From IMG/VR virus record IMGVR_UViG_2579778982_000031: DNA of 54,443 bases; one strand, written 5' to 3'. The stretch is from a virus. Lineage: Duplodnaviria > Heunggongvirae > Uroviricota > Caudoviricetes. Both the position numbers and the translations under genes were made by a program. Below are positions 35,284 to 54,443 of the stretch, in pieces (within the stretch, counting starts at the first letter, position 1; each line of letters starts with the position of its first letter). The notes beneath the pieces are model-generated. The model was not told the origin of the DNA, made no database searches, and worked only from the letters and a program-made list of their open reading frames with translations.

Positions 35284-35300
35284 TTCAAACATCTCCCCAA

Positions 35301-35385: not shown

Positions 35386-35448
35386 CTACGGTCAGATGGG
35401 GGTACTTATGGGGGTATTTGCTGTTCGGTTTAGTGGAGGTACCCCCAA

Positions 35449-37054: not shown

Positions 37055-37258
37055 ATGGCTAATTACAATTCATTAATTCGTCTCTCTGAAGTTCAAAGGC
37101 GAACTGGTTATAGCAAAGCATGGATTTATCGTCTTATTAGTCAGGGGAGGTTCCCTAAACAGGTAAAAATTGGAAGTCGGGCAATTGCTTTTGTTGAGTC
37201 TGAAATAGATGAATGGATTGAGAAGTGTATATTAGAATCTAGAGACGAGGTGGCCTGA
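37055..37258 (+). CDS. alpA: AlpA-family transcriptional regulator / excisionase-like
   Basis: 67 aa; LSEVQRRTGYSKAWIYRLISQGRFPKQVKIGSRAIAFVESEIDEWI is a typical AlpA/Vis HTH. Confidence 0.75.
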   Translation: MANYNSLIRLSEVQRRTGYSKAWIYRLISQGRFPKQVKIGSRAIAFVESEIDEWIEKCILESRDEVA

Positions 37259-37689: not shown

Positions 37690-37701
37690 CGGAGACTGAA
37701 A

Positions 37702-38535: not shown

Positions 38536-38703
38536 GCCGACAGGAACACCACAACCCCAAAAACGCTACAAAGATGCCCACGGAGCACTCGTTACTGTCG
38601 AAAGCGTGTCTCACAACCGAGTGACGTTTTATCGCGACGGGTATCAATCGCCATGCGTACAACTGCTGGCGCGCTTCATGAAGGAGTTCGCGGAGGTTAA
38701 CAA

Positions 38704-39771
38704 ATGCTAACCGTCCAGAAGAAGATATTTTCACTGGCTGGTATGTCGCCAAAATCCAGCAATATGACAGCAAAGTCTGGCATTAATACAGCATATACAA
38801 GCAAAGTTTATCATTTTCTGGTGGTAGGAGCGGATGCCTTAACTATGTCAGAAATTACGGTCGATGGTGTTAGCGTTGAGAAGGTCGGCGGCTGCGCCAG
38901 AGAATTTCTGGTCGTAGATGGCTTTCTCTGCTCGCGTAGTGACTCCACAAAAACCTTCGTCCACACGCGCGACGTTAACGAAATGAGCGCGATGTATTGT
39001 GCATCTGGTGCTTCCAATAGTGAGTTTTCGGAGTCCATAAAAAAGAGCTTGCCGTTATGCGGCAACACGGTTTATGGTTATAAGGCACCTCATAAAACGG
39101 GTGCCGGGATTGGCGTCCTGAAAATTCTGAAGGCGACATATGACGCGCCGAGCGTCTTTTTTTATGTCGTAGGTCTGACTCACCCATTTTTTGGGCGTTG
39201 GTGTATAATCCAGCGCCTTTGTCAATCAATGGTGGCTCAGGCGGGGGCTTCTTCGGAAGCGCCGGTATCCTTCAGAGCCGGTTACGCCAACCCTGTCTGG
39301 GCTACCACCAGCGAAATTGGCGTTTCCGGTGGTAGCGTAACCTGCTATCTGAAGGAGGCTGCCACATGCTGGCTACTACCCCTACCCAAAAACCGCAATT
39401 TATCTGGATTATCGCCGCAGTTCGCCGCGATTGCCCGACAATTACCGCCAAAATTCATCATATTGCTGCCGAGTCTGAACGCGATGCTCGCCGTTCTCTG
39501 GTGCGCGATCACGTCTGCTTTTTTGCTGGTCGTATCCGCATGGAGGTGGCACATGATTAAAACCTACGATGTGCATATGGATCCCCTCGAACGCACAAGC
39601 CAGATCATCACACTGACAGAAGTGATTAACGACATTCTGGTGAGCAACTCTCCCTCACGAGACGAAAGACTGAAGGCGTTACTCGCGATATTGGATCTCG
39701 CCGTTCGTGACGTTCATTTCCTGCTGGAAGGTGGCGAAATGCCAGGAAAAACGGGGGCAACCAATGAATAA
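38704..39771 (+). CDS. Hypothetical protein; gene structure ambiguous
   Basis: 355-aa ORF whose middle looks non-protein-like; a 64-aa ORF (39366-39560, RBS AGGAGG) in another frame and a 72-aa in-frame C-terminal ORF from 39553 (RBS GGAGGT) may be the real genes. Confidence 0.3.
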
Positions 39772-39958
39772 CTCAATTAATGCCCCTCGACTTACGTCCG
39801 CACTTCAATTAATCGAGCAAGCAGCGGCTGTCCTGGTTGCTGTCAGTCTTTCGGCTGAAGAAATGGACGCTGCTGATGTCGTGGATGCGATTAAAGCGTG
39901 CTCATCTTTGGTTAACGATGCCCGTGCAGAGCTGGTAATTCTTGGGGGTGAAAAATGA
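39764..39958 (+). CDS. Hypothetical small protein
   Basis: 64-aa ORF from an internal ATG; part of a run of coupled small genes. Confidence 0.35.
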   Translation: MNNSINAPRLTSALQLIEQAAAVLVAVSLSAEEMDAADVVDAIKACSSLVNDARAELVILGGEK

Positions 39959-40218
39959 ATATCAACTTAATTTATCGTCATCCGTGTGAGCTGGAAATTG
40001 AATCATTGCTGGGGCGTGAAGAGCCATATCCAGACACATTCACTCCCGCAGATTGCGCGACTGAACGGCTTACCAGAGCGCGCACAGGTCTGGTTCATGT
40101 GATGAATGAGATTATTCCCTCGGTGGGAGGGGAACAGGCGACAGTAATCAATAGCTGGCTACAAAAAGTTACCTCCCTGATAGATATCAGTTTAATCGAT
40201 GTGGAGAGTGCGAAATGA
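39955..40218 (+). CDS. Hypothetical small protein
   Basis: 87-aa ORF, ATGA-coupled. Confidence 0.4.
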   Translation: MNINLIYRHPCELEIESLLGREEPYPDTFTPADCATERLTRARTGLVHVMNEIIPSVGGEQATVINSWLQKVTSLIDISLIDVESAK

Positions 40219-40436
40219 CCAACATCCAGCTCATTGAAGCGCAATGTCGCATCGAACAGGTTCAGACTGTTTTAGGGTTCTGGCTTGAAGGGGCCAGCCC
40301 CAGCAACAGAGACAAGTTAATGATTGGCGCGGTTATGTCACTGCTCAATGGCGTACCAGAAGCTATTCAGGAAGCAGACGAATTGTTGGGCAAATATGAG
40401 TTACAGAATCATTCAGGCGAGGCGAAACATGAATAA
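40215..40436 (+). CDS. Hypothetical small protein
   Basis: 73-aa ORF, ATGA-coupled. Confidence 0.4.
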   Translation: MTNIQLIEAQCRIEQVQTVLGFWLEGASPSNRDKLMIGAVMSLLNGVPEAIQEADELLGKYELQNHSGEAKHE

Positions 40437-41031
40437 TTTCTTAACCTTCCATGCAGAAGCAACGCCTGACGGCGTAAACATCATGTACCGCAGCAACGAT
40501 GGCATGACAGAACGCGTTGAGGCCGTTTCATATATTGATGCCGTAAATCGTCTGGATGCCGGGGATTATGACGATAAACCAGATGAAGGTATGTCAATAC
40601 ATCTTGCTATTGCCGATGGCGGCAACCAGGGATATTTCGATTACACATCACAGCATAACGTCATTATGTGGAGATGGCTGATCGCAACAGTATTCATGCT
40701 GGAAATGAGAGAGGAAAACGGCACTGTCAGCATCATTGATGATACTGGCAATCCTTCCGAAGTGGCTGTTTATTCCAACGGCATCGTCGCCATGCCGCTG
40801 TATCCAGTAGCAGAGCGCCTCGCTATGGCAAACAACATTGAGGGCGCGATGATAGAACGTTTTGGCATCGAGTCTGGCACAGAACGCGCCATCATTTTCT
40901 ACAGAGCCATGATGGATGTGGAACAAGGAGCACTGACTCCATTTGGTCGTGAAACGCTTGCTGAACTTCACAACAGCTTTATAGCTGAACTGAATGAAAA
41001 CGGCATGCCAGCGGAACCAGTGACGCACTGA
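40429..41031 (+). CDS. Hypothetical protein
   Basis: 200 aa from the ATG at 40429, overlapping the previous stop. Confidence 0.45.
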   Translation: MNNFLTFHAEATPDGVNIMYRSNDGMTERVEAVSYIDAVNRLDAGDYDDKPDEGMSIHLAIADGGNQGYFDYTSQHNVIMWRWLIATVFMLEMREENGTVSIIDDTGNPSEVAVYSNGIVAMPLYPVAERLAMANNIEGAMIERFGIESGTERAIIFYRAMMDVEQGALTPFGRETLAELHNSFIAELNENGMPAEPVTH

Positions 41032-41041
41032 GGATGGAGCC

Positions 41042-41383
41042 ATGATTACTAAAAATTTCCGACTGAATGCGCTGGCAAATAAGTATGCGTCGGCACTGTA
41101 TAACCACATTACCTCCACCAGCGGCGGGGACTATTTCATGGTTCATGCGGACGACAAGGCCGTACGTGTGGAAATCGTCAATGGAGTAAAAGGCGTTCGC
41201 AGCCTGATCGATAGCTACACACTGGCTGCCATGAAAGTGTTCTACCCGCAGTGGGAAACCGTGGGGATCGAGCTTCTTGATCGTTGCGTCACTAAGGACG
41301 GATTGACTGACGTCGGGCGTGAGATATGGCAAAGCATGGTTAATGACATGGGCGCAACTGTAGCGGGAGGTTCTCATGCGTGA
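41042..41383 (+). CDS. Hypothetical protein
   Basis: 113-aa ORF in the small-gene operon before the primase. Confidence 0.45.
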   Translation: MITKNFRLNALANKYASALYNHITSTSGGDYFMVHADDKAVRVEIVNGVKGVRSLIDSYTLAAMKVFYPQWETVGIELLDRCVTKDGLTDVGREIWQSMVNDMGATVAGGSHA

Positions 41384-41747
41384 AAATGCAGAAATGGCGC
41401 TTAGCTCCGCAATCGGAGAGCAGGTGGCAAAGATTGCTGGTGCTGTGTGGATTCATAACCTTCATTCTACTGGTGAAGAGAAAATGGCAATTCAGACGCC
41501 AGAGGGACGCACCATTACTACATCTCTGAAGCCGTCAGATGTTTGTGATCTGATTTGCGCATTCATGTACCCAGCAATGAGGACTGTCCACGGCGATAAG
41601 TGGAAACTTGCGACAACCGCTGAATTTGATATGTGGCTAAACAATGATGGCATGCTGACTGATTACGGAATAACCAAGTGGCAGATGCTGGTTAGCCATA
41701 TCGCAAACGCTATAGACCACGTGGGGTACGGTGATGCGAAACATTGA
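41376..41747 (+). CDS. Hypothetical protein
   Basis: 123-aa ORF overlapping the primase start. Confidence 0.45.
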   Translation: MRENAEMALSSAIGEQVAKIAGAVWIHNLHSTGEEKMAIQTPEGRTITTSLKPSDVCDLICAFMYPAMRTVHGDKWKLATTAEFDMWLNNDGMLTDYGITKWQMLVSHIANAIDHVGYGDAKH

Positions 41748-44490
41748 TCTTATCCGTCAGGTTATCAGTGCGTCTGAAAACAACTGGCCTCATGTGCTGG
41801 GCTGCCTGAACATAAATGTCCCTGACTCTCCGCGCCGTCATGCTCCCTGCCCTGCATGTGGGGGCAAAGATCGATTCCGGTTCGATGACAACGGGCGCGG
41901 TAGCTTCATCTGTAATCAGTGCGGCGCTGGTGATGGGCTGGATTTAATTAAACGCGTAAATAACTGCGACACAACAGAGGCGGCGCTTCTTGCCGCTGAT
42001 GTTCTGGGTATTGATTACCGGACAACGGAAACACCAGAAGCCACCAGCCAGAAACGGGAACAACTGGAAACCGAGCGCCAGCGACGCGAACAGGAGCGCC
42101 TGAAAAGGGCAGAGAAGGACGAACAACAAAGACGGGATACGTTTTCCCGTCAGTTTGATGACATGCGCAGAAAGGCTGTAAACGGCAAATCTGATTATCT
42201 GGTTGCGAAAGGGGTAGGTGATTTTACATTCCCCGTGTTGCCCGATGGATCTCTGTTGCTGGCGCTGGTGGATAAATCCGGCGCAGTCACAGCAGCACAG
42301 ACTATTACCTCACATGGTGAAAAAAGACTCCTGACAGGTTCAGCAAAGCGGGGGGCATATCACGCCATAAACGCACCAGAAACAACACAGAGCATCTTAA
42401 TCGCAGAAGGGCTGGCAACGGCATTATCTGCCCATTTAATTCGTCCAGAGGCGCTGACAGTGGCGGCGATTGATGCCGGGAACCTGTTATATGTCGCCCA
42501 GGTACTGCGGGATAAATATCCATCAGCACAAATCATCATTGCTGCGGATAACGACCACAGCGAAGGAAGACAAAACACGGGGAGAATAGCAGCAGAAAAA
42601 GCAGCTTTATCTGTTTCTGGATGGGTGGCATTACCCCCGACAGATCACAAAGCAGACTGGAATGATTACCACCAAAAACACGGCATTAAATGCGCCACAG
42701 AAGCGTTCAATAAGTCAATGTACCAACCACAGGGTAATGGCGTGAAACAGGAGCCACAGACCATTGAGGGAAGCGATTTTAAGGTTATGGATACCGACCC
42801 ACTGAAACCAAGAATAGAAAGCCGCGAGGATGGTATTTATTGGGTATCTCCGAGAGCTGACAGCCAGAGTGGAGAAATCATCAATAACGAAAGCTGGTTA
42901 TGTTCTCCGTTAAGCGTTATCGGTACTGGCAGAGACGATAAAGACCAGTATCTCATTCTTCGCTGGCTGTCGTTTGGTTCTGAAACGCCGACAACCGCTG
43001 CCATTCCACTGGCTGATATTGGTGAACGTGAAGGATGGCGCACACTTAAAGCTGGTGGGGTAAATGTCACGACCAAAAGCAGCCTCAGAGCAATACTGGC
43101 AGACTGGCTACAACGCAGTGGCTCTCGTGAATTGTGGCGTGTTGCTCATGCCACTGGCTGGCAATGCGGAGCGTACATCATGCCTGATGGGGAAATCATC
43201 GGAACACCTGAAAATCCTGTGCTGTTCAGCGGGAGAAGCTCAGCCGCAGCCGGATATACCGTCTCAGGGAGCGCGAAAAGCTGGCGTGATAACGTGGCGC
43301 GTCTGGCCTTTGGTAACTATTCAATGATGACCGGGATCGGCGCAGCACTGGCAGCGCCATTGATTGGGCTGGTGGGCGCTGACGGGTTCGGCATTCATTT
43401 CTATGAGCAGTCGAGCGCAGGTAAGACCACCACGGCAAACGTGGCGAGCAGCTTATACGGCAACCCTGATTTACTGCGGCTGACGTGGTACGGAACCGCG
43501 CTGGGGCTGGCAAATGAAGCCGCCGCCCACAATGACGGACTAATGCCGCTTGATGAAGTTGGTCAGGGCGCTGATCCTGTCAGTGTTTCACAGTCTGCCT
43601 ATGCGTTATTTAACGGTGTAGGGAAACTGCAAGGCGCTAAAGATGGTGGAAACCGGGATCTAAAACGCTGGCGTACAGTGGCAATCAGCACTGGAGAAAT
43701 GGATTTAGAAACATTTATCGCTACTTCCGGGCGAAAAACCAAAGCCGGGCAACTGGTGCGACTGCTGAATATTCCGTTGAGTAAAGCAGTACGCTTTCAC
43801 GATTACCAGAACGGAAAACAGCACGCAGACGCACTGAAAGACGCTTACCAGCATCACCACGGCGCAGCCGGGCGTGAGTGGATTAAATGGCTGGCAGACC
43901 ACCAGCAACAGGCAATTAAAACTGTTCGTGACTGCGAAAGCAGATGGAGAAGTCTGATCCCATCCGATTATGGTGAGCAGGTTCACCGTGTAGCCGCGCG
44001 ATTTGCCATTCTGGAGGCCGCATTGCTGTTAGGCGAGGTTGTAACAGGCTGGGATGCTCAGACATGCCGTGATGCGATACAGCACAGCTATAACGCATGG
44101 TTGCGCGAGTTCGGCACAGGTAACAAAGAACATCAGCAGATTATTGAACAAACGGAGGCATTTCTTAATGCCTATGGGCTTAGCCGTTTTGCACCATTTC
44201 CATACAGCCCGGCAGATTTGCCCATCAAAGATTTGGCCGGATACCGTCAGCGTGGAGAACATGACGAAAGCCCAATGATTTTCTACACATTCCCGGCCAC
44301 ATTTGAAAAGGAGATCGCATGTGGTTTCAACGCAAAACAGTTTGCTGAAGTGTTGAAAAAAGCCGGGATGCTAACCCCACCAAACAGCGGTCGTGGATAC
44401 CAAAGAAAATCACCACGTATTCAGGGACGACAAATAAACGTTTATGTACTCAATTACCAGCCAGGAGATTATAACTCATCTGAAGAATGA
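41734..44490 (+). CDS. Primase-helicase (P4 alpha-like; zinc ribbon + TOPRIM + P-loop NTPase)
   Basis: Zinc ribbon CPACGG...CNQCG; TOPRIM-like ILIAEGLATA and AADNDH; Walker A GIHFYEQSSAGKTTTAN; followed directly by an iteron array. Confidence 0.8.
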   Translation: MRNIDLIRQVISASENNWPHVLGCLNINVPDSPRRHAPCPACGGKDRFRFDDNGRGSFICNQCGAGDGLDLIKRVNNCDTTEAALLAADVLGIDYRTTETPEATSQKREQLETERQRREQERLKRAEKDEQQRRDTFSRQFDDMRRKAVNGKSDYLVAKGVGDFTFPVLPDGSLLLALVDKSGAVTAAQTITSHGEKRLLTGSAKRGAYHAINAPETTQSILIAEGLATALSAHLIRPEALTVAAIDAGNLLYVAQVLRDKYPSAQIIIAADNDHSEGRQNTGRIAAEKAALSVSGWVALPPTDHKADWNDYHQKHGIKCATEAFNKSMYQPQGNGVKQEPQTIEGSDFKVMDTDPLKPRIESREDGIYWVSPRADSQSGEIINNESWLCSPLSVIGTGRDDKDQYLILRWLSFGSETPTTAAIPLADIGEREGWRTLKAGGVNVTTKSSLRAILADWLQRSGSRELWRVAHATGWQCGAYIMPDGEIIGTPENPVLFSGRSSAAAGYTVSGSAKSWRDNVARLAFGNYSMMTGIGAALAAPLIGLVGADGFGIHFYEQSSAGKTTTANVASSLYGNPDLLRLTWYGTALGLANEAAAHNDGLMPLDEVGQGADPVSVSQSAYALFNGVGKLQGAKDGGNRDLKRWRTVAISTGEMDLETFIATSGRKTKAGQLVRLLNIPLSKAVRFHDYQNGKQHADALKDAYQHHHGAAGREWIKWLADHQQQAIKTVRDCESRWRSLIPSDYGEQVHRVAARFAILEAALLLGEVVTGWDAQTCRDAIQHSYNAWLREFGTGNKEHQQIIEQTEAFLNAYGLSRFAPFPYSPADLPIKDLAGYRQRGEHDESPMIFYTFPATFEKEIACGFNAKQFAEVLKKAGMLTPPNSGRGYQRKSPRIQGRQINVYVLNYQPGDYNSSEE

Positions 44491-44513
44491 GCTTCTTCAT
44501 GTGCGTAGAAAAG

Positions 44514-44640
44514 GTGTTGGTTCAGTTGGTTCAGTTGGTTCAGTTGGTTCAATTTGTAAAGAGTATTGTTTTATAAGGATTTTATTCTTTTTATTGAACC
44601 AACACTGAACCAACAACACGGTATTTTGAACCAACACAAT
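44514..44640. repeat. Iteron array, candidate replication origin of the satellite-like element
   Basis: Four tandem GTTGGTTCA, an AT-rich spacer, then three inverted TGAACCAAC copies; immediately downstream of the primase-helicase. Confidence 0.6.
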
Positions 44641-44955
44641 GTGACTGAATTGATGCGCACAACACCTGGCTGGCATCAGAGAGTGTTTTACGAGACTTTC
44701 GTAAAATCCTGTGTACAAGGGCGTGACGTTTTTGAAAGTGAGCACTACGAAATTTTCGTAGTTCAAAAAACAGCCTCTGAGAAGTTGTTATGCCTGTTCA
44801 GCAAACCATCCGCATAGCTGATCGCGAATCAAATTACCAATGGAGCCAGAAGCAAGGGCAGAACTGAAAAGTGCCTGCCGTGAAGAGTAATGCGACACCA
44901 TAAATATAGTTTTTAGAGTCCATAAAAAACCAGTCAAAACCTGACACACAGAACG

Positions 44956-44988
44956 ATGCCACCAGCTACTGAGCGGTGGCATTTTTTT
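44956..44988 (+). terminator. Rho-independent terminator
   Basis: 8-bp stem ATGCCACC/GGTGGCAT with ~10-nt loop followed by TTTTTTT. Confidence 0.5.
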
Positions 44989-45083
44989 GTGCTATTTGTT
45001 TCATATTTTGCAATTACGATGATGAATATTGCGATTTATGAAACTATAATAACTGTTGTTTTATACAGTTCTAAGGGGGCGTT

Positions 45084-45245
45084 ATGGCTATTTCAGTAAA
45101 GCCGGTATTGATAAGTGAGAAGCAAATGGAAGCGATAAAGAAAATTCAGGAAGAGCAGCGTAAAAAATCAGGAATTGGAGTAGCGCCAACTCTGCATGAA
45201 ATTGCTCGAGGGTTAATAGATAAGGCGCTGGCAGGCTGTATGTGA
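45084..45245 (+). CDS. Small putative DNA-binding protein
   Basis: 53-aa ORF not in the supplied track; AAGGGGG RBS 5 nt before the ATG; lysine-rich helical composition. Speculative. Confidence 0.3.
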   Translation: MAISVKPVLISEKQMEAIKKIQEEQRKKSGIGVAPTLHEIARGLIDKALAGCM

Positions 45246-45261
45246 AAATGGATGGCATCGC

Positions 45262-45723
45262 ATGGAACTAAAATTTATTGATAACCCTGTGCGATTACAG
45301 GCCTTTCTTAACGATCCTGGCAATACCGAAAATATTGTTGAGCCGGGGCACACGTACTACATCAAGCCTGATGCGGTATATCTCGGCATCTACGAAGGAT
45401 TGGTGCTGGCTGGCGTTCATGAAGTGCGTAACTTCTGGCATAGCGTTGTTGAATGCCATGCGGTGTATGACCCCGGATTCCGTGGTGAATATGCACTGCA
45501 AGGGCATCGACTATTCTGCAAATGGCTTCTCGAAAACTCACCATTCCTTAACAGCATCACTATGGTTCCTGACACCACGAAATACGGACGGGCAATTATC
45601 CGTTTGCTTGGCGCTACCCGTGTTGGTCACCTTGATGATGCTTATATCAGATGTGGTAAACCCGTCGGCGTAACGCTTTATCAGTTAACTCGGCAACAAT
45701 ATAAGGAATTCAGCGAATGTTAA
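45262..45723 (+). CDS. Hypothetical protein (first gene of cargo cassette)
   Basis: 153 aa, start overlapped by the next gene; no motif recognised. Confidence 0.45.
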   Translation: MELKFIDNPVRLQAFLNDPGNTENIVEPGHTYYIKPDAVYLGIYEGLVLAGVHEVRNFWHSVVECHAVYDPGFRGEYALQGHRLFCKWLLENSPFLNSITMVPDTTKYGRAIIRLLGATRVGHLDDAYIRCGKPVGVTLYQLTRQQYKEFSEC

Positions 45724-46394
45724 TTACCCATATAGCTCATAAACATCTCAATCGTGCCGTATACGAAAAAGGCGGTGATGGTGGTGCCTCTAAAGCTCAG
45801 GCGAAGGCCCAGCAGCAGGCAATTGATTTGCAGCGCGAGCAGTGGAATACGGTGATGAATAATCTCAAGCCGTATGCAGAAGTCGGATTGCCTGCTTTAC
45901 AACAACTACAAGGACTGATGACTCTGGAAGGGCAGAATAAAGCCGCGAATGATTTCTTTGGTTCTGGTTTATATAAAACACAGGCAGATCAGGCCCGTTA
46001 TCAGAACCTTGTCTCAGCAGAAGCTACCGGGGGGCTTGGCTCAACAGCTACCAGTAACCAGTTATCTTCCATTGCGCCCATGCTTTATAACAATTGGCTT
46101 AGTGGGCAAATGCAAAATTATGGAAACCTGCTAAATGTCGGGATGAATGCGGCATCAGGGCAGGCAACGGCAGGGCAAAACTACGCCAATAATACCGGAC
46201 AACTCTTGCAGGGGCTTGGCGCTATTCGTGCAGGTCAGGCGCAGCAGCCATCCAGTCTTGCGCGTGGTATTGGTGGGGCAGCATCAGGCGCTTTAGCGGG
46301 TGCGCAACTTGGTTCCGTTGTTCCTGGAATAGGTACTGCGGCAGGCGCTATTGGTGGTGGGCTTATTGGTCTTGTTGGGGGGCTTGGATTCTAA
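45717..46394 (+). CDS. Hypothetical Gly/Ala/Gln-rich protein with hydrophobic glycine-zipper C-terminus
   Basis: 225 aa; C-terminal GIGTAAGAIGGGLIGLVGGLGF; coupled to flanking genes. Confidence 0.45.
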   Translation: MLITHIAHKHLNRAVYEKGGDGGASKAQAKAQQQAIDLQREQWNTVMNNLKPYAEVGLPALQQLQGLMTLEGQNKAANDFFGSGLYKTQADQARYQNLVSAEATGGLGSTATSNQLSSIAPMLYNNWLSGQMQNYGNLLNVGMNAASGQATAGQNYANNTGQLLQGLGAIRAGQAQQPSSLARGIGGAASGALAGAQLGSVVPGIGTAAGAIGGGLIGLVGGLGF

Positions 46395-47713
46395 TGGCGA
46401 CATGGCAACTTGGCGGGCTGCCTAGCATGGCACCGCAAAATGATAATGCTCCTCGTTCTTCCGTTCCTCAGCCTGTGCAGTATCAGCAGCAGCCAAACGT
46501 AGGTTTAATGGCGCTACAGGGGCTAAGAGGCGTTGCTGAGATTAATCAGCAGGCGCAAATTTCCCAGCAGCTAAAAGAATATCAGGCACAGTTGGGTAGT
46601 GCGGTAGCTAATAATGATCGTGTTGGCGTGCAGAAGTTAATGGCCCAGTATCCCCAGTTTATGGCTGATTCTCAAAAACAGATGGGATTCATTGATGCTG
46701 AGCAAAATCGGCAGACCGCTGACGCTGCCATGAATCTGCGTCTTGCGTCACAAACTGGAGATCCACTGACCATGCAGAAGGCCATTCAGCAGGCAAATCC
46801 AGTATTACAGCGATTTGGTCTTCCTGCTGAAGAGGTTTATCAGTCTTGGCAGAATGACCCACAGGAATTCAACAGAATCACTGACCTCATCCACCTCCAT
46901 GCTGATCCAAATAGTTACTTTAGTGTTCAAGAGAAGCAGCAAGGGCAGAGTATTGCACAGCAGAACGCAGATACATCTGCATATAATGCTCAGGTTAATG
47001 CGGAACAGGGTAATCGGCGTCTCGATATGGAGCAGTTCAAAGTCCTATCCGATAACCAGCTACGCACGAGAGAAATGGTTCTGAAAGCACGACTTGGACG
47101 TGCTCAAAATGACATCGAGAGAGACAAGCTCAATGCTGAACTGAGCAAGGTACAGCAGGCGAAAGTGGAGAAGATGAACGATAAAATTAATACTGTTGCA
47201 GGTAACATCGACTCCTTGAACTCTGCGCTTGAAGTGGGTCATGAACTGGCGGGAATTGTAGGGAAACATCCTTCGGCCGTTACCCGTTCGCAGAACTATA
47301 ACCCCCTGACGCTGGGGTTTGGATTCCTTCCTGATGTAGCAGAAGACACACGAAGCCTACGCGCCAAAGCTGATGAATACAACCTAAAGGTTATTCTGCC
47401 TAGCCTCAAAGGGACTTTTGGCTCTAACCCAACCGAAGGGGAAAGGGCTGCCCTTATGCAATCTCAAAATGGCATTAAGTCAGCAACCAGCAATGAGGCA
47501 TTTTTGCGAGAGTTGAATAAAGCGCAGGACGTAATTATTCGAATGCAGAAACGACAGATTGCCGGGCTCGGTATTCCTGTAACCAAATCTAAGGACGAAG
47601 AAACTGATACTAAAATGCTGTTGCAGGATCCTTCTCTGGTTAAGGATTATGTGACCGCACATGGCTATCTGCCGGAAAGTTACTATCAGGCAAAACTTAA
47701 GGGATGGCAATGA
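46394..47713 (+). CDS. Hypothetical Gln-rich coiled-coil protein
   Basis: 439 aa, strongly helical and Gln/Ala-rich; ATG overlaps the previous stop. Confidence 0.45.
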   Translation: MATWQLGGLPSMAPQNDNAPRSSVPQPVQYQQQPNVGLMALQGLRGVAEINQQAQISQQLKEYQAQLGSAVANNDRVGVQKLMAQYPQFMADSQKQMGFIDAEQNRQTADAAMNLRLASQTGDPLTMQKAIQQANPVLQRFGLPAEEVYQSWQNDPQEFNRITDLIHLHADPNSYFSVQEKQQGQSIAQQNADTSAYNAQVNAEQGNRRLDMEQFKVLSDNQLRTREMVLKARLGRAQNDIERDKLNAELSKVQQAKVEKMNDKINTVAGNIDSLNSALEVGHELAGIVGKHPSAVTRSQNYNPLTLGFGFLPDVAEDTRSLRAKADEYNLKVILPSLKGTFGSNPTEGERAALMQSQNGIKSATSNEAFLRELNKAQDVIIRMQKRQIAGLGIPVTKSKDEETDTKMLLQDPSLVKDYVTAHGYLPESYYQAKLKGWQ

Positions 47714-50430
47714 TGGCACAACTGACAGAAAAACAGAAAGCCTATTCCCGTCATCTCGATGAAAAATATGGTTTCCCATCAGGGACGATGGAAACATTAG
47801 TTGGCAATGAATCTAGTGGTAACGGAAGTGCCGAGTCACCGAAAGGAGCTAGAGGATTTGCTCAACTGATGCCCTCAGTAATGAGTGATGCTGGTTATCG
47901 TGGAACAGATCCGCGCTCACTGCCATTTGAAAAGCAAATGGATATCGCAGCAAACCATCTCAATAAAGGAATGAAGCGATTTGGTGATATAGGTATGGCA
48001 TTGGCTGGGTATAATTCTGGCTATGCTCGTATTAATGCCGTAAGAAACGGTAAATCTACACTGCCAGATGAAACGGCTAATTACGTAAGTAAATTTGCAG
48101 ATGCCGGAATAATCCCTGATGACAGTGAAATCTTGCAGTTTGCACAAACCAGTCAACATCGCAATCTTCAGCAGCCTGACTACTCAGAGCTTGATAAAGA
48201 AATCTCTCAGGTGGGAGATATTTCTGCATGGGAAGCAAAACGTCAGCAATTTAAGAACATAGAAGCAGGACTACCAACAGCCAGTTCATGGGAGCAGAAA
48301 AGAGCTCATTTTCTCGCCGATGAAAATGCCGGGGAACCGCAGCAGCAAGTAGCCAAGTCTAACCTTAATCCTGAGATGGAATATCTTTCGCCAGGACTGA
48401 AAGCTGCGCCAGAGCAGATGGCCAGAGGGATTGCTAATATACCGTTTGATGTAATGGACGCAGGCGTGGGGGTAGTCAATGCGGCGCAATCAGCCGGAGC
48501 ATGGGCAGCTCAGAAGCTTGGTGTGGGTGATGGTACATACACGCCCATATCACCTGTCTTTCGCCCAGTAGACCAACCTACAGATCCATACGCGCAGGCT
48601 GGTGAGCAGCTAGCACCTTACCTTATTACAGGATTAGGTGCAGGAAAGGCAGCTACCGCAGCTTCTTCAGTTGCCAACGCTCCACGTGCTGAACGTGCGG
48701 CCACAAAGGTGGCTAGTATGTTGGCAGAAAACCTGCCAGGTACATTGGTGAACGCCCAAAAGAACGGGCAGATCAGCCCAGAAGACCTAGCAAAAGAGAC
48801 AGGTATTGGCCTAGCAGGATCGCTAGGAGCACGCGCTTTAATAAAGAGCGGACAGACAGCCAGTGACGTAATGCGAGATGTATTGCGGAGTAATACAAAT
48901 CAATCAAGCTATGTGTTAGGGGCAGCAAATACTCTGGAAACCGCCAATGATGTATCGAAAGCAGCGCGTTCTGCCGTAGGCCGAGAGCATATCGCATCGC
49001 AGGCATCAAACGTCAGAGATGATGTCGCTAAGGCGGCGAAAATCACTGGTATTAATATCAACACCCTGACGCCTGGAATGCGCTCAGGTAGTCGTGGAAT
49101 TGCCCAAGCAGAAGGTGTTCTGGCATCAACTCCTGGGAATGTTCAGGATGCTCACCTTACGGCCTTCAATGAAATATCCTCAAAGTTGAATAAGCAGTTG
49201 TCTGATTTCGGTGCTGAGTCTGGAAGCGCATCAGAAAAAAGCGCAGCAATTAAAGAGCGCATTATCGCGAGCCTCAGTGATATGAAAACAGCAGAGAATA
49301 TGGCATGGGCAGAACTGCGAAGCACGATGCCACGCGAAAGGATGAAAATGAGTAATGGGATGGCTGTCGTCCAAGCAGAAAAAGCAGCCAATGTTCCACT
49401 CAGCCCGGAGATGAAACAGTTTCAGGCTGCCAATAACCAAGGTGGCGGCATAACCTTCGACGGGATGAAGGCATGGCGTGCTAAGTTTGCTGATGCTGAA
49501 CAAGCAAACACCCGGGCAGGTAAGGCCAATGCCGCCCGGGTTGCCGGAGAAATGCGCAGAGCTATCACTGATGACATGCGCATCATGGCTGAAAAAGGAA
49601 ACTTCCTCACAGAATGGCAGAAAGCTAACGATCTCTCTAAAAGTTACATTATCGCCAAACAAAATGCCGAATCTGTTTTTGGTCGAGATCTCGCATCAGA
49701 CGCTATGGTAAGAAAAGGTGCCGATACGCTTAAGGCATCCGCAAACACTGGAACGGGAGCTTTTCACCGTCTTATCTCCGCGCTGCCGGAAGCAGAACGC
49801 CAACCAGCAATAGCATCTATTCTTCAGCATGCTGTGGCGCAGGGAGAGAAGGGAGGAATCGGTGAAGAGTCTGGTATCCAGTATTTTGCCAAGCTCATGA
49901 CCCAGCAGAATGTAAACGCCATCAGTCGTCATGCGCCAGATCTCGGTAGAATGATGAAAGAGTTCGGTGTACTCGCTAAAGCCAGCACCAGACCGCAGCG
50001 ATACGTAGAGCGCACGGGAAGAACAACTGAGGCTCTCAAAACGCTCGATTCAGGCCTTCCAAAGATCGTCGGCGTGATTATGAACGGAGTTCAACAGTCA
50101 GGTGCGATCGCTGGAGGCTTTGGCGGTGGTGTAATTGGTTCGATTAGTGGTTTGGTTGCTGGTGGCGCGCTGAGAAATACTGTGGCTAAGATTGGGGCGA
50201 CAAGAAGTGGTCGATATGCGATAGAGAAAGCCGTTCAGGAAGCTACAAAAGCAGTGCGCGCAGGGGCATCACCAGCAGCGATCGCCGCAGCAGAGAAACG
50301 ATTTTCGGCCAATAAAATTGCCATGAAAGCAATTCGTGATGCCGTTGGGGCTGAAGAATTCGTGAAACTGACAAGGGCCGGGATTGTAGCTACCCTCAGT
50401 GGCATGAAAGATGTTAGCGAATGGGAATAG
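47704..50430 (+). CDS. Large protein with N-terminal soluble lytic transglycosylase (SLT) domain
   Basis: SLT motifs ESSGNGSAESPKGARGFAQLMP and AGYNSGYARIN in the first ~130 aa; the remaining ~780 aa are Ala-rich helical with a Gly-rich hydrophobic patch near the C-terminus. Confidence 0.6.
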   Translation: MAMMAQLTEKQKAYSRHLDEKYGFPSGTMETLVGNESSGNGSAESPKGARGFAQLMPSVMSDAGYRGTDPRSLPFEKQMDIAANHLNKGMKRFGDIGMALAGYNSGYARINAVRNGKSTLPDETANYVSKFADAGIIPDDSEILQFAQTSQHRNLQQPDYSELDKEISQVGDISAWEAKRQQFKNIEAGLPTASSWEQKRAHFLADENAGEPQQQVAKSNLNPEMEYLSPGLKAAPEQMARGIANIPFDVMDAGVGVVNAAQSAGAWAAQKLGVGDGTYTPISPVFRPVDQPTDPYAQAGEQLAPYLITGLGAGKAATAASSVANAPRAERAATKVASMLAENLPGTLVNAQKNGQISPEDLAKETGIGLAGSLGARALIKSGQTASDVMRDVLRSNTNQSSYVLGAANTLETANDVSKAARSAVGREHIASQASNVRDDVAKAAKITGININTLTPGMRSGSRGIAQAEGVLASTPGNVQDAHLTAFNEISSKLNKQLSDFGAESGSASEKSAAIKERIIASLSDMKTAENMAWAELRSTMPRERMKMSNGMAVVQAEKAANVPLSPEMKQFQAANNQGGGITFDGMKAWRAKFADAEQANTRAGKANAARVAGEMRRAITDDMRIMAEKGNFLTEWQKANDLSKSYIIAKQNAESVFGRDLASDAMVRKGADTLKASANTGTGAFHRLISALPEAERQPAIASILQHAVAQGEKGGIGEESGIQYFAKLMTQQNVNAISRHAPDLGRMMKEFGVLAKASTRPQRYVERTGRTTEALKTLDSGLPKIVGVIMNGVQQSGAIAGGFGGGVIGSISGLVAGGALRNTVAKIGATRSGRYAIEKAVQEATKAVRAGASPAAIAAAEKRFSANKIAMKAIRDAVGAEEFVKLTRAGIVATLSGMKDVSEWE

Positions 50431-50580
50431 ACGCTCTAACTAACAAAACCATAATAGCCAAGGACGGCATACTGATATTGAGCCAACTATCAAAATTCCA
50501 TATCACATTACGAGCCTGTGGCTTACATTCGCTTACAGTGATGATAATTTATAACCACGCAATTCTTAGGTGAGATTATC

Positions 50581-51279
50581 ATGATTAAAAATCTTCTTTT
50601 AATATTATCCCTGTCATTATTGGCTGGATGCGTACAAAAACCGTTAGTAACGGTCAATGCTTTATCTTCCGGGCAATCTGTCGGTAAGAAGTTCTTGATC
50701 ATCCCCGCAAGCCAAGAACTTTGGAACACCAAACAGATTGAATACACTCAAATAGCTACGGTAGTAGCCGCCAGTTTATCAAGCCAAGGATATACACAAG
50801 TTAAAGATGAAAAATTGGCTGACCAGGTAATTCTCTTGAACTTTTTGAGAAGCGGGGCCATTTCAAATACTCGTAATGTAACCATCCCAATATACGGGCA
50901 AACTGGTGTGAGCTCAGCAACAACGTACGGAAACTCGAACACCACGTTCAATAGTTATGGTGGTGGCTACGGTACAGCTAATACCACTGGAACGGCAACA
51001 ACAGTTTATACGCCTACTTATGGAATTACTGGCGCGTATAACACAACTGTGACGGACACGTTCTACGGCGCAGGGGTGATACTCCAGTCGTTTGATGCCA
51101 AGGCCTATCTCAATAATAGGCAGATTAATATGTTATGGAAAGTTGGTAGCTCAGTCGTCTCGCAACAGTCTGATGGAATTGCTGATTACAAGGGGTTGGC
51201 GAGAATAGCCGCTAGCTATGCCGGGAAAAATACAGAAGGTGATATAACTTTTAATGTTGACCCTAAAGCACCAAATTAA
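50581..51279 (+). CDS. Lipoprotein, Thr/Gly/Tyr-rich
   Basis: Signal peptide with lipobox LLAGC; low GC; central Thr/Gly/Tyr-rich repeats. Confidence 0.6.
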   Translation: MIKNLLLILSLSLLAGCVQKPLVTVNALSSGQSVGKKFLIIPASQELWNTKQIEYTQIATVVAASLSSQGYTQVKDEKLADQVILLNFLRSGAISNTRNVTIPIYGQTGVSSATTYGNSNTTFNSYGGGYGTANTTGTATTVYTPTYGITGAYNTTVTDTFYGAGVILQSFDAKAYLNNRQINMLWKVGSSVVSQQSDGIADYKGLARIAASYAGKNTEGDITFNVDPKAPN

Positions 51280-52138
51280 CTAATAAGCCCGGTACGCCGG
51301 GCATTTTGCCCCCTATTATTCATGAATCGCTTTTTCTAGAAGGTATGCGACAAACGTTAAGTGACATTGCCTACACATTCGGGGCGGGATTTCAAATCCG
51401 CTCCCAGTTGATGGGGCCGTTACAGTACGCGCATATCCGCTTTATGTGAAACAGGAAGATTTTTCTGATATCACTGCCACAGCAAAACACCAATTTCGAG
51501 ACAAGTACGCGCGCGAGGGGTATCAGTTGCAAAAAATTTTGCAACTACGTCCGACCAATACACACACGATGGCGGGGGATACCATAAAACTGTTCTCTAC
51601 ATGAGACAGAGTGGTGGTGATGTGTTGATTATCGGCCTATATGCGCACAGGACGCGCTATGACAATGTTTTATGCGGGTACACCAATCACATGTATCTGG
51701 TGTGATAAATCGCGTTACATGACCTCTCATGTTGTGCTGGTGGTTATCACGACGTTCTGAATCTGGCTTTTGTCTGATATTTTGCGACAAGTACGCGCGC
51801 GTAACATCGAAATTATCGGATGGCGTATGTTGCTGGCAAGATAAAGTCGGCGTAATACAAAGGCGTTACTTGATAGCAGCAAGATTACAACAATGGTTGT
51901 TGAATTTGAGCGATGTAAGGAATTGATTTAGGGAGGCGCTGATGGCTAAAAAGTTCCACTACCAGCGGATGAATGCGCCAGCGATGGCCGTTTGGTAGTA
52001 AAAGAGGAGCCATTCCTCAATCAGTTGAATACATTATGCCAACTAAATGGGTGGGGGCACTGTGTGGGTATTCAGCGGTGACGGTATTTTTTAAGCCAAG
52101 GACTATCCGTAGCAGGGGGACTCATTTTGAAATATTTA

Positions 52139-52576
52139 TCATATGTAACTTATTATTTTAGATAAAGATTTCCAGTTAAAGAAAAAAGTTATCATTGATA
52201 TAATCAAATATGCCCCTGCGAGTAGCAGGGCATAATAATCCAGAGGCAGATTGCTGACAACAGGGGCAAACATCGAGATCATTGCTAATAGGCAGGCTGT
52301 GATCAGCGTAGTTCCTGTATCAAAAAGCCCCTCAATAATGCCTTTTAGTACTCCGTTACTTTTTAGAGCGCCTACAATTCCCTTTGAACTATCAAAGCTA
52401 CTTAGCATGGTGACTGATGCCAAAACAAAACCAAAGAGAACTCCAGAAATAGTTGAAAGAGCACCAGCAGCCGAAATGACAGCATTGTGATCTAGGTCGT
52501 GTAAAAAATGGGCACCAGCAATAGCCATAGCTAGAGCAAACAATGACTTGGCAGCAAACAATTTCCGAGAACTCAT
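52139..52576 (-). CDS. Small four-TM membrane protein (RexB-like architecture)
   Basis: 145 aa with four hydrophobic helices; 12 bp downstream of the 361-aa gene on the same strand. Confidence 0.5.
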   Translation of the reverse strand: MSSRKLFAAKSLFALAMAIAGAHFLHDLDHNAVISAAGALSTISGVLFGFVLASVTMLSSFDSSKGIVGALKSNGVLKGIIEGLFDTGTTLITACLLAMISMFAPVVSNLPLDYYALLLAGAYLIISMITFFFNWKSLSKIISYI

Positions 52577-52588
52577 AATGTATTCCTG

Positions 52589-53674
52589 TTACGTTTGACT
52601 AACCAAATAGTACTGGGTTAGATACCTAAGGTTGTCATTCTTTGCTTGTAGCATAGCATTTTTAACGTCAGTATCGGTCGGGTACCCATCTGCTTGGATA
52701 GGCACCATCTTCTTTACCGTAAGAACTTCGTCTACAAGACTTTTCTTCTTTTTATCGCCCTGAGCAACAACATTTGCTTTCTCAAAAGTTAAACGACCAT
52801 CACCACCAGGGAACTTTTCTAGCATCTCCTTAAGGCTTTTTTTAACGTCATCCTCAAGCCATCCCTTTGCTTTTCTTTTTAATGGAGCATGTCCGCGTAA
52901 CGAAATAGTCAGGTGGCTTGAACTGGTGCCTCTGATCATCTCAATCATCTGATTCGCGAACATTCCATCGAGTTGATACTGTGCGGCATTGAAGTTTCTT
53001 GGGATGGCCACAGAAATCTCGCAGCTTCTTAGATTGGATCCAGTTTCGAGTAGTTCTTTGATGCTTTCTTCTTTCCAAATGGCTTCAAAAGAAACAGGGA
53101 CTCCGCGATCACTGGAGTTGAAAAGAAGGAAGGCTAAGTCACTATGGCGTGGACCTAAATGATTTAAAGACAATACTAGAATGTCTGTCTGAGGATAATA
53201 AATAAAGTATGTACGTTCTGAAAGAGTCTTTGCCCCGGCTAGAGGGATTTTCTCTTCCACCCACTCTTTATCTGTAATATATGCCAGTGTTGCGCTTTTT
53301 CTTCTTCGAGACATGAATCCGAAGTAGGAGCCATCCTCGGGTGAGATGTCTAGAAAATGAATTTTAAGTTCTCTTTCACCAAAGTCTGCATAGTGGGTCA
53401 TCTTGAAGTCTTTAGAACACCGATCATAGAGATTTTTAAAGGCCTCTGCGGTTAACCCCTTGTTACTAGTGCGAATATTCTCAGAGCTTGTGTAAAAGCC
53501 CACCCTTACAGATTTCAAACTTTGATCTTTTGGTGCCACAGTCATTTGAGCTCCATTGTACTCTGCGATAGTTTTTGCACACCTTGAAATCAAAATCTCC
53601 ATGTCAGTCACGAGAAAATAACTATGGATGAAACCCATCAAAGGCATTGAATACAGGTGGCTTTTGAGAATCAT
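52589..53674 (-). CDS. Hypothetical cytoplasmic protein (RexA-like position)
   Basis: 361 aa, AT-rich codon usage, no TM segment, no motif recognised; first gene of a two-gene reverse-strand operon. Confidence 0.5.
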   Translation of the reverse strand: MILKSHLYSMPLMGFIHSYFLVTDMEILISRCAKTIAEYNGAQMTVAPKDQSLKSVRVGFYTSSENIRTSNKGLTAEAFKNLYDRCSKDFKMTHYADFGERELKIHFLDISPEDGSYFGFMSRRRKSATLAYITDKEWVEEKIPLAGAKTLSERTYFIYYPQTDILVLSLNHLGPRHSDLAFLLFNSSDRGVPVSFEAIWKEESIKELLETGSNLRSCEISVAIPRNFNAAQYQLDGMFANQMIEMIRGTSSSHLTISLRGHAPLKRKAKGWLEDDVKKSLKEMLEKFPGGDGRLTFEKANVVAQGDKKKKSLVDEVLTVKKMVPIQADGYPTDTDVKNAMLQAKNDNLRYLTQYYLVSQT

Positions 53675-54019
53675 CCTAACCTGGTGACGGTGGTTCGCAT
53701 ATCCTGATGGATGATCAGTGATTAATCAATGCGCCAAGCAGATGTGTCTATGTGTTTGTTAATCATTGCATGACAGTAGATCGACATGGGAGATCACGTT
53801 ATATAGTTGAATTGTTAGGATATCCATGCACCGATCAACTGACTAGGCTGATGTGCTTTTTAGCAGGTGCCATATAGTAGTTAGGCGGTTCTGTGAAATG
53901 ATTACTGTTCCAGCATAACTGCGGCATAAAGCGGTGCTATATAAGCTATTTGCTGGCGGATTTAGTCTTCACCGTTCATATATGTAGTGACTATTTGACA
54001 GAGTGTTAGTTCACGGACA

Positions 54020-54161: not shown

Positions 54162-54443
54162 ATGATAAGGGACAGGAAAGCTGAAGAGCTGGAGTCAAAA
54201 GGGCTATACCGGAGAGCTGCCGCACGATGGATGGAAGTCATGCTGTTATGCAGCGAGGACGATGATCGGGAATGGATAAAGCGCCGCCGTGAAACGTGTC
54301 TGGAGAACGTGAAGCGCCCGCCCGTGAAGGTTGAGGAATTTGGCGACCTGCATAAAGCTGTTACCGAAACGCAACACCGCATGGGGATAGCGCAACCGAA
54401 CGGTAACGCCTTCCGGTTAAATGGCGGCAAGAGGCAAAGGTAG
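54162..54443 (+). CDS. PerC/ANR-family regulator-like protein
   Basis: AEELESKGLYRRAAARWMEVM motif, paralogous to the gene at 1132-1620; ends in TAG at the window edge. Confidence 0.55.
   Translation: MIRDRKAEELESKGLYRRAAARWMEVMLLCSEDDDREWIKRRRETCLENVKRPPVKVEEFGDLHKAVTETQHRMGIAQPNGNAFRLNGGKRQR

Follow-up and report, generated by a model that had tools for sequence, protein, structure and literature searches.

A putative P22-type ejection-protein operon in an EcCIMP1-type phage satellite of Escherichia coli

We analyzed a stretch of 54,443 nucleotides (nt) of the Escherichia coli chromosome (IMG/VR record IMGVR_UViG_2579778982_000031; below, the window), in which a four-gene cassette at 45262-50430 lies within a phage satellite that, judged by its sequence, is a close variant of the published element EcCIMP1. 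The four genes are homologues of P22 genes 14, 7, 20 and 16, the last three of which encode ejection proteins (E-proteins). With a probability of about 0.6, they form, together with the small upstream gene orf53, a functional E-protein operon of the satellite (orf53-14-7-20-16), the products of which would be loaded into helper capsids to serve as a DNA conduit. The satellite itself has been published and experimentally validated, and each cassette protein belongs to a known family. What is new is the recognition that a satellite family carries the full P22-type ejectosome operon, conserved across genera under strong selection, as well as the modular swapping of gp20-gp16 alleles, the occasional sieA homologue and the T7-like fusion of a lytic transglycosylase (SLT) domain to gp16 in the P22 lineage.

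Phage satellites are known to hijack their helpers at induction, at capsid assembly or at DNA packaging. If the above reading is correct, the entry step would join this list, as the satellite would bring along internal proteins for DNA delivery, and transfer of the island between strains would be governed by the island's own genes and not by those of the helper. As the satellite family is common and carries virulence regulators (PerC), together with accessory or defence genes that can be swapped, the range of hosts it reaches is of consequence for gene flow among the Enterobacteriaceae. Our literature search for satellite-encoded ejection, injection or pilot proteins revealed no earlier description beyond passing remarks in the EcCIMP1 paper.

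Identity of the cassette genes

Searches with Pfam and PHROG profiles assigned each of the four proteins to a specific P22 family. The gene 14 homologue matched PF11039 (DUF2824, E 5e-62) and phrog_651 (E 6e-67), the gp7 homologue matched PF25688 (P22_gp7, E 7e-73) and phrog_598, and the gp20 homologue matched PF16928 (Inj_translocase, E 4e-22), phrog_917 and phrog_2534. The gp16 homologue matched phrog_770 ('DNA transfer protein', E 2e-120) over amino acids (aa) 182-864, and was assigned PF26808 (Phage_P22_gp16) in the cluster annotation. The order 14-7-20-16, on one strand and tightly packed, is that of P22, Kapi1, Dewey, HS1 and an intact E. coli prophage. A first-pass annotation of the window had described four coupled genes of 153, 225, 439 and 908 aa at this position, and all four were indeed found there. 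They overlap at every junction, by 7 nt, 1 nt and 10 or 4 nt (RefSeq starts gp16 at an ATG 6 nt downstream, giving 906 aa), which is consistent with translational coupling. The compositional features noted at that stage also hold. Gly accounts for 16% and Ala for 15% of the gp7 homologue, and seven GxxxG motifs fall within its last 60 residues, corresponding to a glycine-zipper tail, while the gp20 homologue is Gln-rich (11.8%), mostly in its first 200 aa. Chance open reading frames are ruled out by Pfam E-values of 1e-12 to 7e-73 and by ratios of non-synonymous to synonymous substitution rates (dN/dS) of 0.02-0.2. PDB sequence searches with gp7, gp20 and gp16 gave no match at E <= 0.01. Based on family profiles and gene order, the four genes are direct homologues of P22 14/7/20/16, being of the P22 type rather than of the T7 type.

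The homologous proteins of P22, Sf6, HK620, CUS-3, Kapi1 and Dewey are encoded in the same order by overlapping genes, and in P22-like phages and satellites alike, gp7 is the best conserved, while gp20 and gp16 are hypervariable and mosaic. The satellite proteins share 23-58% aa identity with those of P22 and Kapi1, except for gp14, which is 84% identical to that of Kapi1. Specifically, gp14 is 23% identical to the P22 protein, gp7 is 56-58% identical across P22 and Kapi1 (58% for Kapi1), and gp20 and gp16 are 26% and 24% identical, respectively, to those of Kapi1. The position of the cassette differs as well. In P22-like phages, it is found between the needle and tailspike genes, whereas the element contains no tail needle or tailspike gene and its cassette instead follows the satellite primase, the origin and a satellite-specific small open reading frame. 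The position downstream of the origin, also described in the first-pass annotation, is supported by iterons at 44516-44640.

That annotation had likened the cassette to T7 gp13-gp16. The resemblance to a podovirus ejection set stands, as does that of the SLT domain to T7 gp16-N, although the direct homologues are the P22 proteins. In synteny and function, P22 gp7, gp20 and gp16 correspond to T7 gp14, gp15 and gp16, whereas sequence similarity between the two sets is slight or absent (PMC8954989, PMC10461980). The T7 ejectosome (PDB 7K5C) follows the same three-part logic of an outer-membrane part, a periplasmic tunnel and an inner-membrane part. Between T7 and the satellite, no sequence homology was detected outside the SLT fold, T7 gp15 and gp16 are larger (747 and 1318 aa, as compared to 439 and 908 aa for satellite gp20 and gp16), and T7 gp13 is not a DUF2824 protein.

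The lytic transglycosylase domain of gp16

The gp16 homologue contains an SLT domain (PF01464, E 1e-12) at aa 17-119 (nt ~47752-48060). The catalytic Glu36-Ser37 pair is unchanged in 29 of 29 SLT-bearing homologues, and the further motifs GFAQLMP (GLMQ-like) and AGYNSG (AYNxG-like) are present. An AlphaFold2 model based on 39 homologues presents a confident SLT fold at residues ~10-150 (predicted local distance difference test score, pLDDT, 80-92), a low-confidence linker at 150-410, a long helical region at 410-770 and 823-900 (pLDDT 65-88), and a Gly-rich hydrophobic segment at 771-822. Helices make up nearly all of the C-terminal ~500 residues. The N-terminal SLT domain claimed in the first-pass annotation is thus supported, while the helical remainder of the protein, also claimed, holds for the C-terminal ~500 residues and is of low confidence for aa 150-410. 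As profile, fold and motifs all agree with the family, the N-terminus of gp16 is a predicted family 1 lytic transglycosylase.

In a Foldseek search, the gp16 model retrieved the T7 ejectosome (7k5c_B) as the top match, followed by Slt, MltD and MltE, all with E >= 0.03. The SLT domain compares to the T7 structures 7k5c_B and 9jyy_I with E 0.03-0.17. These values are modest because only ~150 of the 908 residues align. The C-terminal 500 helical residues and the 150-410 linker gave no informative match in this search. In T7 gp16-N, the lytic transglycosylase comprises residues 1-156 with E37 (PMC8954989), corresponding to residues ~10-150 with E36 in the satellite protein.

The gp16 proteins of P22, Kapi1, HK620 and CUS-3 lack this N-terminal domain. 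The same SLT and Phage_P22_gp16 architecture is, however, found in the P22-like phages Dewey (locus L004 of our collection, 11962-14589) and Huey and in a P22-like prophage of Serratia marcescens (L014, 10001-12592); in Dewey and in the Serratia prophage, it is labelled only 'DNA transfer protein'. In these cases, the gene lies between the needle and tailspike genes of a complete phage genome. The satellite protein is 46.5% identical to Dewey gp16 over 97% of the protein and 54% identical to the Serratia protein over its full length. These fusions contradict the statement in a review that gp16 of P22-like phages has no transglycosylase domain, which is too broad.

Relation to EcCIMP1 and its helper Kapi1

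From 35238 to 51846, the element is 98.3-98.9% identical in nucleotide sequence to EcCIMP1 of E. coli MP1, with similarity resuming at 54003, and the cassette proteins are 98.7-99.3% identical. The two share the thrW site, the gene order and the cassette. The window's copy differs in carrying another module at 51.85-54.0 kb, where two minus-strand genes take the place of alpA_1, and in lying behind a tandem myovirus prophage.

EcCIMP1 (19,963 bp) was described by Pick, Stadel & Raivio (ISME J 2025, PMC11773190) and classified as a type C phage-inducible chromosomal island (PICI). It excises and circularizes only if the P22-like temperate phage Kapi1 is present, its excision requires its own integrase and AlpA, and Kapi1 lysates transfer it (PMC11773190). 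In that paper, 'no phage-like structural genes' were reported, the cassette was annotated as 'DNA transfer/DUF2824 hypothetical proteins' and EcCIMP1_017-019 were put forward as possible packaging factors (PMC11773190). The full 14-7-20-16 set, the SLT domain and the allelic variants were not recognized there. DNA common to the satellite and Kapi1 is limited to gene 14 and the ends of gene 7 (78-81% identity). These were also the only segments found when we searched for a pac-like or other segment shared with Kapi1.

Integrase beside a tRNA attachment (att) site, AlpA, a primase-replication gene with an origin and a unidirectional layout are PICI hallmarks, and all are found in the element. 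The P4 core genes psu, delta, sid, epsilon and alpha are absent from the RefSeq annotation of collinear loci, with no dedicated profile search having been made for them. Of the earlier designation 'P4/PICI-like', the PICI part therefore stands, given the 98% identity to EcCIMP1, while the element does not appear to be of the P4 type. No capsid, tail, terminase or lysis gene was found between 35238 and the end of the window (the right end of the satellite lies outside) or in the collinear complete loci, and no scaffold or redirecting gene was found in the element. The absence of capsid and tail genes noted earlier thus applies to the element but not to the window, which contains a complete contractile-tailed prophage at 1-35237.

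The first-pass annotation had considered the cassette unexpected in such an element. As the element is 98% identical to EcCIMP1, the helper of which is the P22-like Kapi1, the cassette instead fits the virion type of the helper and is not out of place. Its suggestion of action on a helper virion agrees with the reading favoured below, while that of an unrecognized cryptic phage is excluded by the content of the element and by the published helper-dependent excision and transfer.

Distribution, allelic variants and selection

Among 5,426 complete E. coli genomes, 72 contain the cassette in the version seen in the window (version A), counting those genomes in which at least 80% of it is held. 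In 67 of these 72, primase and cassette form one block, and one of the other five has IS insertions. The cassette does travel with the integrase-primase module, a point the first-pass annotation had proposed checking. The same association is seen in Citrobacter, Leclercia and Serratia. Versions B and C, described below, are found in at least 298 of the 5,426 genomes. Cassette copies in Citrobacter and Leclercia satellites are 83-85% identical to version A and are preceded by genes for the DUF927 primase, SSB, ProQ and PerC. These copies and those of the Serratia type all follow the DUF927 primase in elements with integrase, AlpA, AntA and Ash genes. The cassette is a conserved core of a satellite family found in Escherichia, Citrobacter, Leclercia and Serratia. 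In the satellite L008, it is accompanied by another integrase and another replication protein, and the insertion site also differs.

The versions differ in which genes are present and in the alleles of genes 20 and 16. Version A (window, EcCIMP1) comprises gp14, gp7, a 439-aa gp20 and the 908-aa SLT-gp16. Version B (L006, which is E. coli CFSAN027343, and L008) has gp14 and gp7 as in A, with a 473-aa gp20 and a 701-aa gp16. Version C (L007) consists of gp20 and gp16 only, and version D (L015) of a 449-aa gp20 and the version B gp16 only. In the Serratia type (L017), orf53 is followed by gp20 and a 943-aa SLT-gp16. Between A and B, gp7 is 100% identical, gp20 is 48% identical over the N-terminal 187 aa only and gp16 is unrelated, the allele breakpoint being ~160 nt into gene 20. 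Across the compared loci, the gp20-gp16 pair is thus always present and is exchanged as a unit between alleles, with gp14-gp7 being optional. The satellite SLT-gp16 proteins form their own clade, with 78-99% identity in Escherichia, Citrobacter and Leclercia. Neither satellite allele was found in any sequenced phage, the nearest being 46-52% identical for version A and 67% for version B, such that the alleles are so far satellite-specific.

Weak partial matches in E. coli correspond to genuine P22-like prophages or their remnants, where gene 14 follows the needle gene. One such remnant, at argW of O157:H7 (L009, 11372-14188), contains a truncated needle gene, genes 14, 7 and 20 and intS, but no gene 16. 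Over 287 nt, gene 14 of this remnant reaches 97.6% identity with the satellite gene, which indicates that satellites and resident P22-like prophages have recombined at gene 14. In a Klebsiella michiganensis satellite (L016, 10001-12649), a 59-aa orf53 homologue is followed by a 605-aa phrog_7694 protein and no P22 E-proteins. The C-terminus of this protein resembles tape-measure and 'tail injection transglycosylase' proteins, and a small-terminase-like 168-aa protein is encoded next to it. This arrangement suggests that the slot can hold helper-matched virion or injection proteins of other phage types.

In P22, sieA follows gene 16, and some satellites keep this arrangement. In version B satellites, a 204-aa membrane protein is encoded after gene 16 on the opposite strand (L006, 17209-17823; L008, 17948-18562; both minus). 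It matches phrog_7745 (E 4e-4) and is 29% identical to P22 SieA (E 8e-8) and 34% identical to the experimentally validated HS1 SieA (E 2e-9). Its motif NRYPGEARRARK, with an RYPGEA core, can be compared to the SieA consensus FnRYPnEAnnFNK. We consider this protein to be a divergent, putative SieA homologue in the P22 position. As sieA has been reported only in P22-like prophages (PMC10461980), a satellite-borne copy represents a new context.

The cassette is under strong purifying selection. Between the window and EcCIMP1, the four genes present dN/dS values of 0.08-0.20 (33 synonymous and 14 non-synonymous substitutions), and gp16 of versions B and C a value of 0.13 (97:48). Between the window and Citrobacter or Leclercia, the values for the four genes and orf53 drop to 0.02-0.08 (0.02-0.03 for orf53 itself), with synonymous divergence (dS) above 1 and hundreds of substitutions. 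Such saturated dS between genera excludes very recent spread of a single clone as the cause of the conservation. The cassette proteins are 83-89% identical between genera, as compared to 68% for the satellite primases. Low dN/dS and conservation above that of the primase show the cassette to be a selected core function of the satellite lineage rather than debris.

Possible roles of the cassette

In the reading to which we assign a probability of about 0.6, induction of a P22-like helper and AlpA-driven expression of the satellite would yield the cassette proteins, which would then enter helper procapsids, either alongside or in place of the E-proteins of the helper. On adsorption, the ejected proteins would build a conduit across the envelope, with gp7 at the outer membrane, gp20 forming the periplasmic tube and gp16 at the inner membrane. 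The SLT domain of gp16 would cut peptidoglycan, as T7 gp16-N does, and the satellite DNA would enter the recipient through this satellite-encoded conduit. Capsid-forming PICIs, P4 Sid/Psu and SaPI CpmAB provide precedents for satellite proteins that join or reshape a helper-built particle (reviewed in PMC6893505). Those proteins alter the size or shell of the capsid or the specificity of packaging, whereas the EcCIMP1-type cassette would contribute internal DNA-delivery proteins.

Published work on P22 bears directly on such a role. E-proteins of Sf6, L, HK620 and CUS-3, mostly with only 21-26% identity in gp16 and gp20, assemble into infectious P22 virions; gp16 and gp20 must share the same source, while gp7 can be exchanged alone (PMC10461980). 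SieA exclusion, which also blocks transducing particles, targets the C-terminal portions of gp20 and gp16, where escape mutations are found (PMC10461980). The swapping of gp20-gp16 as a unit in satellites, with gp14-gp7 being optional, mirrors both the matched-pair rule and the SieA target. One can speculate that a matched gp20-gp16 pair of its own makes delivery of the satellite independent of the helper's allele. Equally speculatively, its own alleles might let particles enter recipients that exclude the helper's allele, for example by SieA-type exclusion in P22-like lysogens, the cells in which the satellite gains most from landing. Taken together, these ideas amount to a satellite that would 'bring its own ejectosome': in a so far unrecognized form of piracy, the capsid would not be reshaped nor packaging redirected, but helper-built P22-like particles would be loaded with the satellite's gp20-gp16 pair, the alleles of which are shuffled and which may or may not come with gp14-gp7 and an SLT domain. 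Entry would be decoupled from the helper and SieA-type blocks or other envelope barriers that stop the helper would be passed, with some members deploying a SieA homologue themselves against incoming P22-like phages. We advance this wider scheme tentatively, since we believe it is somewhat more likely to be wrong than right.

Several points weigh against such a role and need to be considered. Transduction of EcCIMP1 by Kapi1 is low, and a Kapi1-like prophage is found in only 2 of 21 EcCIMP1 strains (PMC11773190). As E-proteins enter procapsids before the DNA does, helper and satellite particles would be loaded with the same mixture, with no apparent sorting, and mixed, mismatched gp20 and gp16 might poison conduits. 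Nonetheless, Kapi1 titres from induced lysogens are unchanged by EcCIMP1. The SieA proteins of P22 and HS1 exclude phages with several very different E-protein sets, only the HK620 set partly escaping (PMC10461980). Since SieA tolerates E-protein diversity, allele divergence alone does not predict escape. Kapi1 itself has no recognizable sieA. Finally, our promoter scan upstream of orf53 revealed no sigma-70-like site that stood out, promoter-like sites being no more frequent than expected from shuffled sequence.

The strongest competing explanation, although we consider it unlikely, is that the cassette serves defence or interference, with the satellite E-proteins and the lipoprotein encoded downstream, or the SieA homologue, being made in the carrier cell and harming P22-like phages by mismatched co-assembly into progeny virions, lowering infectivity in the manner of other satellite interference factors, or by blocking incoming conduits at the envelope. 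In keeping with this, EcCIMP1 adds superinfection immunity against Kapi1 in lysogens, mismatched gp16 and gp20 are known to yield non-infectious particles (PMC10461980), the sieA homologue lies beside gp16 in version B satellites and some EcCIMP1 genes (unnamed in the text of the MP1 transcriptome paper) are up-regulated in Kapi1 lysogens. The unchanged Kapi1 titre noted above, however, weighs against such a role. Moreover, a pure decoy needs neither an intact catalytic SLT domain, nor the full gene set, nor strong selection on full-length proteins.

Less probable again is a role in establishment, where gp16, possibly with gp20, would act after entry to protect or join the ends of a headful satellite concatemer for circularization and integration. 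In P22, the tdx-1 effect suggests that gp16 influences what becomes of transduced DNA (cited in PMC10461980), and the ejection protein gp44 of 80alpha binds genome ends (PMC7290940). As EcCIMP1 is about half the size of Kapi1 (39,436 bp), each headful would amount to roughly a linear dimer, which needs to be resolved. Yet no sequence feature specific to DNA-end binding is seen, the E-proteins of the helper should be able to act in this way as well, and both the constant pairing of gp20 with gp16 and the retention of the SLT domain are left unexplained.

We give very little credence to the cassette being an inert leftover of a decaying P22-like prophage, acquired by the island through recombination and kept as a mere passenger. 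The 78-81% DNA identity with Kapi1 in gene 14 and the gene 7 ends, and the identity of up to 97.6% with resident prophages over short stretches, would agree with such an origin. However, no reading frame is broken and all of them overlap, dN/dS values across genera are 0.02-0.08, the same slot is occupied in four genera and the cassette is better conserved than the primase, while real remnants, such as that at argW of O157:H7 with its truncated needle gene and lack of gene 16, look different.

A reading unrelated to ejection, be it a fragmented tape-measure gene or a conjugative or secretion (VirB1-like) lytic transglycosylase with partners, is scarcely credible: long helical Ala/Gly-rich SLT proteins are known from tape measures and type IV secretion systems too, and secondary PHROG matches to 'lytic tail' proteins exist, albeit weak and through the SLT domain only, but specific P22 families are best for all four genes, none matches a tape-measure family in Pfam or PHROG, no tail genes and no type IV secretion or relaxase cluster are found in the element or, in the case of the latter, in collinear complete loci, and the window's only tape measure belongs to the separate myovirus prophage. 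The two findings that the first-pass annotation had named as arguing against an ejection cassette, namely a fragmented tape-measure gene and a conjugation or secretion origin, were thus not encountered.

The MP1/Kapi1/EcCIMP1::kan strains offer a usable system for addressing both incorporation of E-proteins and sensitivity to SieA, each of which is also a question in P22.

The satellite around the cassette

The features of the satellite and of the upstream prophage are summarized in Table 1. The left end of the satellite is defined by the att core repeat, and from 35238 onward the alignment shows identity to NZ_CP069438 at its thrW locus, which is intact. The att core published for EcCIMP1, TCCTATTATC, falls inside the 35238-35283 repeat, and no whole tRNA is found in the window. 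The AlpA accession, annotated in the collinear locus L001 (constant offset 25261), is the same in EcCIMP1. At 355 aa, the Ash reading frame is unusually long, its Ash domain occupying aa 124-232; in EcCIMP1 itself (L002), the Ash gene is a truncated pseudogene beside an Icd-like gene that is missing from the window's copy. The origin-like region is composed of four direct GTTGGTTCA repeats (44516-44551), an AT-rich spacer and inverted TGAACCAAC copies (44595-44640).

Table 1 Features of the cassette, the surrounding satellite and the upstream prophage in the window.
Feature	Coordinates	Strand	Basis or remark
P22 gene 14 homologue (DUF2824; 'head morphogenesis')	45262-45723	+	153 aa
P22 gp7 homologue (ejection protein), Gly-zipper hydrophobic C-terminus	45717-46394	+	225 aa
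P22 gp20 homologue (ejection protein), allele 'A'	46394-47713	+	439 aa
P22 gp16 homologue (ejection protein), predicted N-terminal lytic transglycosylase	47704-50430	+	908 aa
att core repeat, 3' half of tRNA-Thr (thrW); satellite left end and tandem prophage junction	35238-35283	+	alignment
Satellite tyrosine integrase	35449-36663	+	Pfam Arm-DNA-bind_3, Phage_int_M, Phage_integrase; same position as EcCIMP1 intS_1
AlpA-type helix-turn-helix regulator (EcCIMP1 master regulator alpA)	37055-37258	+	RefSeq WP_000035054.1
AntA/AntB-family antirepressor	37702-38535	+	Pfam AntA E 1e-21
Ash-family protein	38704-39771	+	Pfam Phage_ASH E 5e-34
Primase/replication protein (Zn-ribbon, Toprim, DUF927)	41731-44490	+	Pfam; phrog_1139 E 6e-179
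Origin-like iterons	44516-44640	.	TRF and sequence reading
Terminator-like stem-loop with T-run, putative boundary of replication unit and cassette operon	44959-44988	+	consensus scan only
orf53, opens cassette operon	45084-45245	+	strong ribosome-binding site AAGGGGG
Lipoprotein (lipobox LLAGC), 232 aa, Thr/Gly/Tyr-rich middle	50581-51279	+	sequence
Terminator-like hairpins	51287-51311		downstream of lipoprotein gene
Two-gene accessory module: 145-aa hydrophobic membrane-like protein and 318-361-aa protein	52139-53674	-	phrog_8552, phrog_7651
PerC-family regulator	54162-54443	+	RefSeq annotation of collinear loci; window ends just past gene, before satellite right end
TerL	11506-13239		upstream prophage
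Portal	13433-14674		upstream prophage
HK97-type capsid	15317-16522		upstream prophage
Sheath	18706-20202		upstream prophage
Tape measure, only one in window	20969-22804		upstream prophage
Baseplate and invertible fibre genes	to ~30100		upstream prophage
pinE invertase	30092-30682		upstream prophage
Ppl defence protein, 917-aa PHP/AAA (RefSeq 'TrlF family AAA-like ATPase')	32122-34875	-	PADLOC PDLC02208 E 2e-157

The gene orf53, which encodes 53 aa, lies directly upstream of the cassette slot in every satellite examined, in Escherichia, Citrobacter, Leclercia, Serratia and Klebsiella alike. Its product has no Pfam or PHROG match. An AlphaFold2 model (pLDDT 87.5) presents an extended N-terminus and two helices, for which the best Foldseek match has E = 4. 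The protein could be a regulator or an adaptor; the topology of the model is compatible with a ribbon-helix-helix regulator, although neither a family nor a fold match accompanies this possibility.

The lipoprotein gene downstream of the cassette is probably co-transcribed with gp16. It is 100% conserved in EcCIMP1 and limited to E. coli version A satellites, being absent from those of Citrobacter and Leclercia. Only sub-threshold matches to DUF4136 and TraT were obtained (E 0.06-0.09), with no PADLOC or PHROG match, and, together with the absence from Citrobacter and Leclercia, this led us to set aside its identification as a TraT-like exclusion factor and to treat it as an accessory gene. 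The gene occupies the slot held by sieA in P22 and in version B satellites. The lipoprotein is a candidate for the published superinfection-immunity phenotype of EcCIMP1.

Neighbouring and accessory genes

The first 35,237 positions of the window contain a complete, unrelated contractile-tailed (myovirus) prophage, a separate tandem insertion at thrW. We considered whether its tail genes could be part of the same element as the cassette and rejected this, as the prophage is complete and set off by the att repeat; a contractile-tailed virion has no use for P22 E-proteins. The exact prophage-satellite junction is found in no complete E. coli genome of our collection, the best match covering 77% of 30000-37500. 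A 178-aa protein encoded next to the Ppl gene (31025-31561, minus strand) gave no family match.

The accessory pair in the right part of the satellite replaces the alpA_1 region of EcCIMP1 (blastn break at 51846-54003) and has no PADLOC match. The pair recurs in the E. coli satellite L015, with 100% and 99.7% identity, and in a Klebsiella michiganensis satellite, where it is located elsewhere and is 89-91% identical. The pair resembles a mobile cargo cassette, and is possibly an unclassified defence system.

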